Positions 30,913-36,023 of a stretch of DNA of 36,023 bases are shown here, piece by piece. A program made the translations under genes and the position numbers. Position 1 is the first letter of the stretch. Every line of letters begins with the position of its first letter. The stretch comes from a virus (lineage: Duplodnaviria > Heunggongvirae > Uroviricota > Caudoviricetes): the IMG/VR virus record IMGVR_UViG_2778261035_000011. One strand, given 5' to 3'. A model generated the notes under the pieces. The model saw only the letters and a list, made by a program, of their open reading frames with translations, did not search any database and was not told the origin of the DNA.

Positions 30913-31332
30913 TCAGTACAGCAGAGGCTCGCGCAGTGATGCCGGAATATGCCGCAGCGATAACTGAACCGCTTTCAGGGCAAGCGAGGAATAACAGCAG
31001 CGCGCCCAGCCTTTTGCCATTAACCGGTAATCGCGCCAGATACGCTGCCACATTTCACGGGCTTTCGGGTCTGATACACAGATGTATTCACGGTCCATGA
31101 CGTACTCCCATAAATCCACGTTAAACGCATCGCCAGACGCAATGGCGCGGGATATGCTTTCGCCACAATAACGCGCACAGATGCTGTAATGGTCGAAAGT
31201 AATCAGGTAAGTCTTTTCACCACAATCATCAACTTTCCGGGCGCAAATAAACTCGCGTAATTCACCACCGTTGTTATTGCGTTCCTGAATTCGGATTAAT
31301 GCCTGAATTTCATTTCGGATTTTGACGTTCAT
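30913..31332 (-). CDS. hypothetical early protein
   Basis: 139 aa, Cys- and Trp-rich; tightly packed in the early operon. Confidence 0.45.
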   Translation of the reverse strand: MNVKIRNEIQALIRIQERNNNGGELREFICARKVDDCGEKTYLITFDHYSICARYCGESISRAIASGDAFNVDLWEYVMDREYICVSDPKAREMWQRIWRDYRLMAKGWARCCYSSLALKAVQLSLRHIPASLREPLLY

Positions 31333-32109: not shown

Positions 32110-33048
32110 TTAATTACGCAGCAGCGTTGAAATATCAACGTCCAGGTCTAATTCACGGAAAGCCTGACGCAGATAATCTTCGTTAACACGCTCATCTTTA
32201 CCGTGAGCCGTCATGGCGGCAAGGCGAAGTGAATGATTCAGAATGCGAAGCGCACCTGGTTTCTGCGCAATCTGCTGTAATAACTCCAGTTCTTTTTCGC
32301 CGTTAATCTGCCAGGCATCCGCAATAGCTTTTACATCGGCTTTTTTTGTTTTATTAATTGCAGTGCGCTTTGCAATACGGGAAAACAGACGGGCAAATTC
32401 AACCGTTCTGTTACCCCCCGTCATATTTGAATAAACCCGGTGATTTCCCATCAGCACAAGGCCAATACGGGTTGATTCCTGTAACAGGCGGAGTTCTTCC
32501 AGAACTTCGGCACCAAGATGATCAGCTTCGTCGATGATAACCAGCCCCTGTGTACCTTCAAGGCGACGTCGCAGGGCGCGGGAGAGCGGCCCTTTACGGC
32601 GTGGTGCGTCATTCATTCCCAGCTCAAACGCCAGTTCAGTAAGACATTCCAGAACGCTGGCACAGGATGGCGTAATGGTGATCATCCAGACATTGTTATT
32701 GGTGCGGCGATATTCACGGGCCGCTTCGGTTTTGCCCACACCAGGATTGCCACATACAACAGCAATACTTTCAGTCAGGCTGGCAAAACGCATACTTGTC
32801 CAGATTTGTTTTACCGTCTGCGTTTCCACAAAGCGGGGCGGTTCAGGTAGTTCTGCAACTGCATGATATTTTTCCAGCCAGCGTTGCAGAATTTGTGAAA
32901 CACGCTCGTTATCCCCGTTGTACTTATCATTGATAAAACTACTGATAGTTCCGGTAGAAAGTCCGCTCTCAAGAGCAATTTGTTTAAAGGTGGTTTCTTC
33001 ATTTTCTACAAGCGTGCGCAGTCCTGCGCGAATATCGGAAATATTCAT
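32110..33048 (-). CDS. B: transposition ATPase / target DNA activator MuB
   Basis: 312 aa; Walker A VVCGNPGVGKT and Walker B LVIIDEADHL; immediately downstream of the transposase gene. Confidence 0.95.
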   Translation of the reverse strand: MNISDIRAGLRTLVENEETTFKQIALESGLSTGTISSFINDKYNGDNERVSQILQRWLEKYHAVAELPEPPRFVETQTVKQIWTSMRFASLTESIAVVCGNPGVGKTEAAREYRRTNNNVWMITITPSCASVLECLTELAFELGMNDAPRRKGPLSRALRRRLEGTQGLVIIDEADHLGAEVLEELRLLQESTRIGLVLMGNHRVYSNMTGGNRTVEFARLFSRIAKRTAINKTKKADVKAIADAWQINGEKELELLQQIAQKPGALRILNHSLRLAAMTAHGKDERVNEDYLRQAFRELDLDVDISTLLRN

Positions 33049-33086: not shown

Positions 33087-35093
33087 TTAAATGGCTTTTT
33101 TACGTCTGTTCTGTTCCAGAATATCCAGCGAATGATTCAGATATTCATCACGCTCAGTTTCGTATTCATCATCACGCTCCTGATTCTTCACCCGTTCCAT
33201 ATTACCGGAAGGCCGGAAAATGCCGACAATTCGTGATTCTGGTGCTTCAGGTTCGGCTATCTGCGGCAGCAGCTCTGCCACTTCCAGTGCATCCATTTGT
33301 TTCTGTGCCTTAATCGCTGCTTTCGTCGCAGATTTCAGTTGTTTCTGGCGGCGGCGATATTCACGGCCTGCCGCAGCATCATTAAACGCAACAGGTGACA
33401 GACATTCCGCTTCACAGATAAACCGACCGTCCAGGGTGTAGCAATAAACCGTGCTGTGTAACTGCTGTGGATCAAATCTGACCACAACTTTTTTCACTCC
33501 GGCATTCATTAACGCCATGTTGTAATAAACGTTTTTCGCACCTTTAAGGGAGCCGCCAACTTTAAGCGCGAACTCGCCTTTACGTGAAACGTTCACCGCC
33601 TCGGCAGGCAGTAACAGCATCCGTTTTTGCTCTTCGGTAGGCTTACGCACAATCGTTCTGGCGTATTCACGCTCAAAAACGTCATCAAACGAAAGTTTGC
33701 CTCCGCACATTTCTGTTTCACGGCCTGTTCTGGCATTGAACATCGCCACACCTTCGGCAAGGGTTTTCAGAAACAGCTCTGCATCAACAGCGCGGTCGCC
33801 ATAGTTATCAGGTTTTGCCTGCGGATTAGGCCCCGTATATGCGCCAGCCAGTGCCGGATGCTTATCAACGTATTCCTCAAGCCCACCAACACCGAAAGCA
33901 CGTTCAACAGGTTTTGCCTGGCCCCAGCCTTTACCGGCAACAACGCTTGTCCAGTGCATTTTCGCCCCCATCAGTAAAAACAGTCCTTTTGGATCGTCCT
34001 CTTTTACCTTAAAGCGGTAGCGATTGGGCGCGCCTCCCGTCAGCCATTTATTCGCAGCACCACGGGTGTTATCAATGGTGATGTGAAAATCCTCCGGGAT
34101 ACCGTAGCGAGTCACAACATCCATGAACGAGAGGCGAATTGAATCAATGTTCTCGCTCACATCGCAGCGCCAGCCCAGAATTTTTCGGGTTTTCACATCC
34201 TGCCAGAACCATGTTTTCGGGCGGATCACATCACCGTTAAACCAGCGTACAAAGACGTTATGCAGATAACCGTCGCCGTTGATCCACTGCATGGCGTCCA
34301 GGTGTTCCACAGTTCGTTGTTGTGCCGGTATCAGATGCATCAGTGCATGTTCACCTTCACGGCAGGCAACAACCATTGCCTCGTTCAGTTGCTGAATCCG
34401 GCGAAAGGCCGTGGCACGGGAGGGAATACTCCAGCCATGCTCGCGGGCTGCCAGTTCCAGACGCTCATAACATTTGCGGAAGGCGGGTTTTTCCGGTCGC
34501 AGATAATCTGCAATCAGAAACTGCCAGGCATCCTCGTCAAATTCACTTTTGTGAACATTGCGACGGGATGCACCACGTCCATCAACAAGAGCAGCCGCCC
34601 AGTCAGGCTTCGCAAACTTCTGTACCTGGTAATACTTGTCACGCAAAGTGGATGCGCTGACCTGGTAATGTCCTGCAACGGTCGCAAAAGCCGTTTTTGT
34701 TGAAATCCCCTGGTTCAGCATTTCGTCTGCGGCCTGAACCGCAGGCAACCATTTTTCAGCAAGTCTGCGCTGGGAATCGCTGGCGTTATCCCATTTGCTC
34801 CACAGCGCCTCGCGATCATAATCGTGGGCTTCCAGCGTGGGGCGGGCGATTTCAAAACGGCCCATGCTTGTTTCAATCTCTCCTTGTCTAAGCAATAACG
34901 CAGCTTGCGTTTCCTTTGGTAAAGATGAGATATGAAACTCATAGGCTACTCCTCTTACCCCGTGTATCTGTCGAAACACCCACTGTTCTAACCTTGCTTT
35001 ACGAGAGATCGCGCTAGAGGATTTTGGAAGACCTATCAGCCCTTCTAATTTCTTTGCAGAAAACCAATCATTACATTGTGGTTGCATTTTCAA
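33087..35093 (-). CDS. A: DDE transposase MuA
   Basis: 668 aa; N-terminal DNA-binding domain homologous to the repressor N-terminus in this window; long central catalytic core; acidic C-terminal tail ending NRRKKAI. Confidence 0.95.
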
Positions 35094-35317
35094 TACCTCG
35101 AAGGCCAGAGGTCTCGTGGCTCAACTCCCAATGCATCGGCAATAATTCTTTCACCCCGAGGGTAAGGTTTATCCAAGGCATTTTTTACCGTAGAGATAGA
35201 GAGACCGTTCTCACGACCAAGAGCTGCTAGGCTTTTTCCTCTTTTGCGCAGATCAGCAACAATGTCGTATCTGCTTTTGTCTTCACATTTACTTTTCTTT
35301 ATCGCCATAAAATGCAA
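35090..35317 (-). CDS. ner: Ner-like DNA-binding regulator (negative regulator of repressor and early transcription)
   Basis: 75 aa; ...[38 protein letters not shown] matches the Ner/Nlp family signature; divergent from c across the operator region. Confidence 0.85.
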
Positions 35318-35504
35318 TCCTCACAAGCTACGCCATCAGCTACGCCGCAAGGTAGCTGACAAGGTATGCAGCAATGTTAGTGTGAATACATTGTCAATGC
35401 AATGATGTATTCAAATATTTCGTTTGAATTTCATCTATCTTGATGATTTTAAAATGAATATATTTTTGTTTCTTTGAATACATGGTGTATTTAAAGCGAG
35501 GTTT
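35318..35504. promoter_or_regulatory. operator / divergent promoter region between ner and c (expected Pe, Pc and transposition enhancer)
   Basis: AT-rich 187-bp gap with repeated TGAATA(CA) motifs in both orientations (35384-35390, 35406-35413 inverted, 35424-35429, 35453-35458, 35475-35482). Confidence 0.6.
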
Positions 35505-36023
35505 GTGATGACACAAGAATGGTTTTCAGCTAAAGAGCTACAAGGGGTTGCTGGTCTTCCGTCTTCAGCAAGTAGTATTAGCCGCAAAGCAACTAATGAG
35601 GGATGGAAAAAGAGACAGATCAAAGGAGTAAAGGGAGTTGCTTATGAATACCATATCAGCTCATTACCTGATGCCACTCAGGCAGAATTAGGAGGGGCGC
35701 AGTTATTAGATAGCGATAAGCCAGCTTATAAGTTAGCTTCTGTGTTAATGGCTTTGGTCGCAGAGTTAGAACCAGAGGAAATCCAGAGGGCATTAAAGCT
35801 ACTTAGTAAAGGCGGACTTGGAGCACTAATGCCAAGTATCTTTGATCAGACTCAAATCCAATCTCTGCACGGCGTATCGCGTGAGTGCATACAACTAGCC
35901 CAAATGCTAGAAACTTTACCAGCAGATGCGCGCAAAGAGATTTTGTCAGAGTATGGTATTCATGAACAGGAAGGTTTTGTAGCTCCTTCACAAGAACCAC
36001 AAGATGTAAAAAAAGCCGTATAA
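35505..36023 (+). CDS. c: Mu-type repressor c
   Basis: 172 aa; N-terminal domain shares long identical stretches with the MuA N-terminus here (WFSAKEL.G..GLP.S.S.ISRKA; GV.GVAYE.HISSLP); C-terminus ...[28 protein letters not shown]; divergent from ner. Confidence 0.9.

Follow-up and report, generated by a model that had tools for sequence, protein, structure and literature searches.

Repeated words between ner and c of a Mu-like phage as a probable operator and transposition enhancer of a D108-related but distinct immunity type

The 199-bp gap between the divergent ner and c genes of a Mu-like phage is probably (about 80% in our estimate, from its sequence and by analogy with known phages) the operator and transposition enhancer of an immunity type that is related to that of phage D108 but distinct from it. 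The repeated element T(G/A)AATACA in this gap would be the recognition element for a winged-helix domain common to the c repressor and transposase A, and the evidence that bears most strongly on this assignment is that the core of the word changes together with the recognition helix of the domain among related phages. Four rival explanations, weighed below, jointly hold the small remaining share of probability.

We analysed the phage DNA as one stretch of 36,023 nucleotides (the window), of which positions 34900-36023 are 100% identical to Escherichia phage PhiR68_1 (PV340575.1), where the matching genes are annotated as transposase, Ner and repressor. Open reading frames, Pfam matches and that annotation revealed a Mu-type layout, with c and ner transcribed divergently and A and B next in order:

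32110-33048, minus strand: B gene (open reading frame)
33087-35093, minus strand: transposase A (open reading frame)
34890-35093, minus strand: N-terminus of transposase A, an I-alpha-like domain with helix SSSAISRKA, within the private immunity module described below
35090-35308, minus strand: ner, 72 aa (open reading frame; Pfam HTH_35)
35309-35507: ner-c gap, 199 bp, between divergent ner (minus) and c (plus)
35508-36023, plus strand: c repressor gene, 171 aa (open reading frame; Pfam HTH_Tnp_Mu_1)

The remainder of transposase A matched Mu transposase families in Pfam, and the GC content of the gap drops to 0.23-0.32 in its right half. An Rfam search of 35000-36023 returned no RNA family, and a reading of the region as an RNA element was dropped for that reason. 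The name PhiR68 led in the literature to one preprint, which concerns another phage of the series and is silent on the c-ner region.

Comparison with Mu and D108 showed that the locus is a mosaic with sharp boundaries. A and B share 97-98.5% identity with both phages up to about 34888-34925, and the final 120 bases of c (about 40 codons), beginning at a boundary at 35904, share 85% DNA identity with Mu. Between these boundaries, in a segment where Mu and D108 are also unlike one another, the two phages match the window differently and neither matches it closely, leaving a private immunity module that comprises the first 60-65 codons or so of A, ner, the gap and about 130 codons of c. Taken as a whole, the c protein is 40-41% identical to D108 c and 48% identical to Mu c, the latter value coming mostly from the C-terminal part. 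It thus appears as a D108-related N-domain joined to a Mu-like C-terminal tail, and in this tail it differs from D108 c.

A sequence-only reading of this DNA had pointed to at least five copies of a TGAATA(CA) core, in direct and inverted orientation, in the AT-rich gap, and a motif search bore this out with three exact copies of TGAATACA, two copies with one mismatch and a weaker sixth copy; the 6-mer TGAATA occurs four times in the gap. These copies (sites A to F) and the other candidate elements of the gap are as follows, with variable columns counted over eight loci, namely the window, five E. coli chromosomes and loci L028 and L030, whose c proteins are 85-100% identical and carry the same recognition helix:

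35336-35359: candidate Ner operator TCAGCTAC-N8-GTAGCTGA, an inverted repeat in the GC-richer left part of the gap
35356-35361 and 35378-35383, plus strand: candidate repressor promoter (CTGACA, 16 nt, TAGTGT), putative and weaker than Pe
35374-35402, minus strand: candidate promoter Pe, directed toward ner, with -35 TTGCAT (35402-35397), 17 nt and -10 TAACAT (35379-35374)
35383-35390, plus strand: site A, exact TGAATACA, 1 of 8 columns variable, in the Pe-proximal cluster (O2-like)
35406-35413, minus strand: site B, exact TGAATACA, 2 of 8 columns variable
35425-35432, plus strand: site C, weak copy TGAATTTC, 6 of 8 columns variable
35436-35448, minus strand: candidate IHF site AATCATCAAGATA, two mismatches to WATCAANNNNTTR, between the two clusters
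35455-35462, plus strand: site D, TGAATATA, one mismatch, 5 of 8 columns variable
35475-35482, plus strand: site E, exact TGAATACA, 2 of 8 columns variable, in the c-proximal cluster (O1-like)
35486-35493, minus strand: site F, TAAATACA, one mismatch, 0 of 8 columns variable

Using 5000 dinucleotide-preserving shuffles of the gap itself as a null model, the three exact 8-mers compared with a shuffle mean of 0.023, and none of the 5000 shuffles gave three, while the five copies with at most one mismatch compared with a mean of 0.47 (P=0.0002). When the post hoc choice of word was corrected for by allowing any 8-mer, three copies were reached in 2.4% of shuffles. Because these tests, including the post hoc correction, exceed chance, the repeat can be regarded as a real observation. 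The 35.8 kb outside the gap contain a single further exact TGAATACA, at 31083, which is about the chance level. The 6-mer TGAATA occurs 45 times in the whole window against 16 expected from dinucleotide shuffles; however, a Markov-4 model already predicts 40.2, and we rejected a dispersed motif, the excess being due to composition or codon use. Part of the Mu operator region is located near the start of c. One-mismatch copies of TGAATACA are present in the window inside c (35645-35652, 35886-35893 and 35955-35962) and inside ner (35278-35285), but they are unconvincing as sites, being only slightly above a background of 1.14 per kb.

The copies differ in how they are arranged and kept. Sites A and B form a perfect 9-bp inverted repeat (TGAATACAT / ATGTATTCA) with arms 13 nt apart, the 8-mers themselves being separated by 15 nt, and sites E and F form an inverted pair, CTTTGAATACA-N3-TGTATTTAAAG, with a 3-nt gap; both gaps are equal to those in D108. 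Among the eight loci, 5 of the 32 columns in sites A, B, E and F were variable, compared with 51 of 111 in the rest of 35362-35504 (Fisher P=0.002, a value that is indicative only, coming from close relatives whose columns are treated as more independent than they are), and the left flank of site E, TTCTTTG, was also kept. By contrast, the copies at 35425 and 35455 vary like the background and are therefore not counted as reliable sites: judged from the sequences, site C is probably not a real site and site D is possibly a weak auxiliary one. Conservation thus favors the proposal that the copies are operator half-sites for those at 35383, 35406, 35475 and 35486 and leaves the other two doubtful, and two clusters are clear, A/B and E/F, plus or minus site D. 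Some relatives with the same helix carry changes inside the sites (TGAATGCA, TGGATACA and TGCATTCA), indicating that exact recognition rules are loose. No clear third operator (O3) is evident in the gap. We considered GGTATGCA at 35363-35370, which has two mismatches, as a weak, O3-like extra half-site and rejected it as unconserved in D108 and in the E. coli relatives; it pairs with site A and its flank within a 14-nt inverted repeat (35357-35370 / 35383-35396, TGACAAGGTATGCA / TGAATACATTGTCA, 86% complementary) that brackets the candidate -10 elements.

A protein domain suited to reading such sites occurs twice in this phage. Residues 2-61 of c and residues 7-66 of A are 65% identical, and both N-termini match Pfam HTH_Tnp_Mu_1 (PF02316), so that repressor and transposase have an N-terminal winged-helix domain in common, as in Mu. 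By sequence, the c domain matches 1TNS (MuA I-alpha) and 1G4D (the Mu repressor DNA-binding domain). An AlphaFold (AF2) model of c was confident for residues 1-60 and of low confidence in the C-terminal two thirds; the modelled domain has a short helix (8-11), a long helix (21-31) and a beta wing, and its best Foldseek superpositions were with 1TNS (rmsd 1.8 Å over 61 columns) and 1QPM, the latter again a structure of the Mu repressor DNA-binding domain. Residues 21-31 of c are the recognition helix of this winged-helix DNA-binding domain (residues 1-60). The enhancer of Mu is bound by subdomain I-alpha of MuA, a winged helix-turn-helix (PMC3362531).

Setting the region beside the D108 operators, as the sequence-only reading had proposed, gave the same positions and spacing with a different core. 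D108 has the same gene order, a control region 68% identical over 35312-35555, and an IHF-like core, an AGCTAC-type inverted repeat with an 8-bp spacer and a candidate Pe that are homologous to those of the window. Judged from the sequence, the sites of the window presumably match the experimentally defined O1 and O2 of D108. In D108 and SfMu, TGAAATCA-like words occupy every position at which TGAATACA or its complement stands in the window: site A aligns with TGGAATCA in D108, TGAAATC in SfMu and TGAATAC in a Sodalis relative, and site E with TGAAATCA in D108 and SfMu and TGAATTC in locus L011. The D108 core is ATC/GAT while that of the window is TAC/GTA, in both half-sites of each pair. In the E/F pair, whose D108 counterpart is TGAAATCA-cta-GGATTTTA, TGAA-TAC-atggt-GTA-TTTA of the window compares with TGAA-ATC-actag-GAT-TTTA of D108, so that the two phages differ symmetrically in the inner triplets but agree in the outer bases, as expected if one protein element reads both half-sites. 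The c DNA-binding domain of D108 is only about 56% identical to that of the window, with helix TNITRKA instead of SSISRKA. By sequence, then, the window has neither the c domain nor, as its operator word, the GAAATCA of the D108 immunity type, the version that SfMu and Mu_3F6 also carry.

The parallel drawn with the Mu operators did not extend to DNA, since the Mu gap shows no similarity to that of the window and contains neither AATAC nor AAATC. Mu resembles the window in logic and location, with repeated sites in two clusters that flank an IHF site between c and ner (PMC3145075; PMC3362531). By contrast, the Mu helices (AGVHYRA or AGVIYVA) differ from SSISRKA, and the window carries neither the c domain nor the operator words of the Mu immunity type.

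Further relatives were gathered by a search of genome contigs using an alignment; a contig scan with a single c protein as query had yielded no relative. We counted the two cores, AATAC and AAATC, in the 150 bp upstream of c in 11 loci plus Mu:

Window, helix S-I-S-R-K: AATAC 4, AAATC 1
L030 (E. coli, c 85% identical), helix S-I/V-S-R-K: AATAC 5, AAATC 1
L049 (IMG/VR, c 48% identical), c helix KAANSISRKA: AATAC 4, AAATC 2
L031 (Sodalis MAG, c 37% identical), c helix SSPNSVSRKA: AATAC 4, AAATC 1
D108, c helix KLATNITRKA: AATAC 0, AAATC 7
SfMu, c helix KLATNITRKA: AATAC 0, AAATC 5
L047, c helix SRATNITRKA: AATAC 1, AAATC 3
L050, c helix KQATNITRKA: AATAC 1, AAATC 7
L056, c helix KQATNITRKA: AATAC 1, AAATC 7
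L065, c helix KQATNITRKA: AATAC 1, AAATC 5
L011 (Volucribacter), c helix NKATNVTRKA: AATAC 0, AAATC 3, plus AATTC 6
Mu, c helix GSVAGVHYRA: AATAC 0, AAATC 0

Across the 11 loci, helix S-I/V-S-R-K pairs with AATAC and helix N-I/V-T-R with AAATC. L049 and L031, although their c proteins are only 48% and 37% identical to that of the window, retain the full layout of GTGAATAC, TGTATTCA or TGTATTTA, an IHF-like core and an inverted pair adjoining c, and together with an E. coli/Salmonella cluster (P0001) they have the S-I/V-S-R-K helix in both c and A and AATAC-type words placed as in the window. We found no experimental study of these prophages in the literature searched. In each phage examined, the A helix is of the same class as the c helix (KQATNITRKA in D108 and SfMu, NVTRQA in L047, L050 and L056, and KTSAGVIYVA in Mu). 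Because the word covaries with the helix, it is best taken as a target for the c/A domain, in preference to a host protein or Ner, and this covariation is the strongest evidence that we have.

What the sequences show are the sites, their excess over chance, their conservation, the domain common to c and A and the covariation of helix and word; by analogy with Mu and D108, we infer how the sites are bound and act as an enhancer, where the promoters lie and what IHF does, as follows. The four good sites constitute two inverted pairs, A/B (35383-35413) lying over the candidate Pe and E/F (35475-35493) just upstream of c, with a probable IHF bend site (35436-35448) separating the pairs and helping c to occupy them. 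In a lysogen, c oligomers would fill both pairs and shut Pe, turning off ner, A and B, and c would also bar A from the enhancer. Upon induction, the N-domain of A would bind the same sites, which would now be used as an enhancer that aids phage-end pairing and the end-enhancer complex, and Ner, acting at a separate site (35336-35359) just downstream of Pe, would lower the activity of both promoters. An enhancer of the Mu type is bound by both the repressor and the I-alpha domain, and its deletion cuts transposition about 100-fold; for the window, the covariation of helix and word lends indirect support to such binding.

The rival that survives best holds that the sites are repressor operators only and do not serve the N-domain of A as an enhancer in this phage. 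We regard it as unlikely, although enhancer function is argued here wholly by analogy and Mu can do without the I-alpha domain and the enhancer under some conditions (PMC3362531): the N-terminal codons of A lie within the swapped module, as would be the case if the N-domain of A had to fit the operator, and in every lineage examined this domain retains the helix residues that define the class of its own repressor. Such matched helix classes would be difficult to account for if A did not have to read these sites.

As to which proteins would bind the repeated word, the sequence-only reading had named the c repressor, Ner and the N-domain of A. The shared domain, the D108 spacing and the covariation favor the c repressor and the A N-domain, acting at an operator and an enhancer respectively, whereas the candidate site for Ner is a separate repeat. 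This repeat aligns with a perfect 11-bp inverted repeat of D108 (CCGTGAGCTAC-gctataaa-GTAGCTCACGG), which we take to be the Ner binding site of that phage; its arms are 8 bp (TCAGCTAC) instead of 11 bp in length, and the AGCTAC core is retained although the TGAATACA word differs. Among the eight relatives, 1 of 16 arm columns was variable, compared with 5 of 8 in the spacer, and the Ner protein is 64% identical to D108 Ner and 46% identical to Mu Ner. With an AGCTAC-core inverted repeat, an 8-bp spacer, a position just downstream of Pe and a Ner homologue, the window is predicted to have a Ner operator of the D108 type. An additional direct copy of AGCTACGCC at 35326-35334 brings the half-sites in 35326-35359 to three, two of them direct AGCTACGCC copies 12 bp apart and one an inverted GTAGCT; by contrast, D108 has the inverted pair without the extra direct copy.

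That the TGAATACA copies are Ner sites, or are common to Ner and c, would accord with Ner working in the same intergenic region in Mu and D108, but it is very improbable in view of this separate repeat and a Ner so similar to that of D108. Moreover, the word follows the c/A helix, while the Ner repeat varies independently of it: L049 has Ner arms of the D108 type (TGAGCTAC-N8-GTAGCTCA) together with AATAC-type sites. Since the Ner repeat and the c sites assort independently, Ner is very unlikely to read TGAATACA, and the sequence comparisons make it almost certain that it binds elsewhere, at TCAGCTAC-N8-GTAGCTGA.

An IHF site at 35436-35448 is likely from the alignment. At the homologous position, D108 has AATCATGCTGTTA (one mismatch), L028 and L030 have AATCAA....ATA (one mismatch) and the Sodalis locus L031 has AATCAAGTGTTTA, a perfect match, and the TGATTT core (35444-35449) is invariant in the eight relatives. 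The candidate Pe is homologous to TTGATT-17-TACATT of D108, its -35 element is invariant in the eight relatives, and it agrees with the consensus at 7 of 12 positions, which is below the threshold of the promoter scan. It can be tentatively suggested from the sequence that site A falls in its spacer and site B just upstream of its -35 element, with a start near 35367. The sole match returned by the scan, TTGTCA-17-AATATT (plus strand, 35391-35419), was discarded as being no more than shuffles give and poorly kept in relatives.

It is also hardly probable that the repeats themselves are promoter elements or sites for host proteins (IHF, Fis, H-NS or similar) in AT-rich DNA. The low GC content of the region, the resemblance of TTGAAT to a -35 hexamer and the binding of host proteins to the equivalent Mu region (PMC3820752) would all suit such a role; however, the TTGAAT copies lack a consensus -10 at the right distance, and the core varies with the phage's own helix, AATAC against AAATC, within one host genus (the phage of the window and D108). 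Least probable of all is that the repeats are functionless chance or low-complexity sequence, a concern raised by short AT-rich DNA and a word picked after looking but opposed by the shuffle tests, by conservation against a drifting background and by the same positions in relatives whose c proteins are 37-48% identical.

The architecture of an operator and enhancer read by a shared domain is thus known from Mu and especially from D108, and what is new is the specificity, the AATAC word with the S-I-S-R-K helix. Neither was found in the literature searched; the comparison with D108 was made with its sequence. A specialist would not be surprised, and the picture of Mu-like phage control is unchanged; its interest is that a third operator/enhancer specificity would be added to the classic Mu/D108 pair, and that the covariation points to the residues and bases behind specificity in the winged helix of the Mu repressor and MuA I-alpha, which could be of use in orthogonal Mu-based transposition or repression tools. 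We give an even chance to the stronger statement that this is a third immunity specificity among the Mu-family phages of E. coli and Salmonella, in which changes from N-I-T-R to S-I-S-R and from AAATC to AATAC retarget the repressor and the transposase domain together. If true, it would provide a simple recognition rule for this winged-helix class and a natural orthogonal set of enhancer, transposase and repressor beside those of Mu and D108. The immunity region was found in 17 of 5426 complete E. coli genomes, and a c protein cluster at 96% identity represents 109 sequences on 844 contigs, Salmonella included.

Several relatives showed features of their own. In the Sodalis locus L031 (MAG JBLKSS010000061.1; 924-1082 and 1-975), the transposase is split, with a 52-aa N-terminal fragment that ends in a stop, and the ner homologue is truncated (55 aa), while the operator layout is still complete; by its sequence this prophage is probably decaying. 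In Mu, altering the C-terminal tail of the repressor influences its stability and leads to virulent phenotypes. In E. coli bR_120_Kylling (NZ_CP182374.1; locus L007, 720-1253), c ends in ...DVKKPYNNQESS instead of ...DVKKAV and has 177 aa compared with 171, so this allele may behave differently. A 134-aa protein (P0012) joins a phage integrase fragment (PF00589) to the C-terminal two thirds of a Mu-type c, and is probably from a rearranged or chimeric prophage remnant. Finally, locus L052 (IMG/VR UViG_3300011858_000030, 1270-1500), with c helix DKSSVNRRA, carries another repeated word, GCAACGACAAAT in two copies plus TTGCAATG, and this combination of word and helix suggests further specificity classes in the family.
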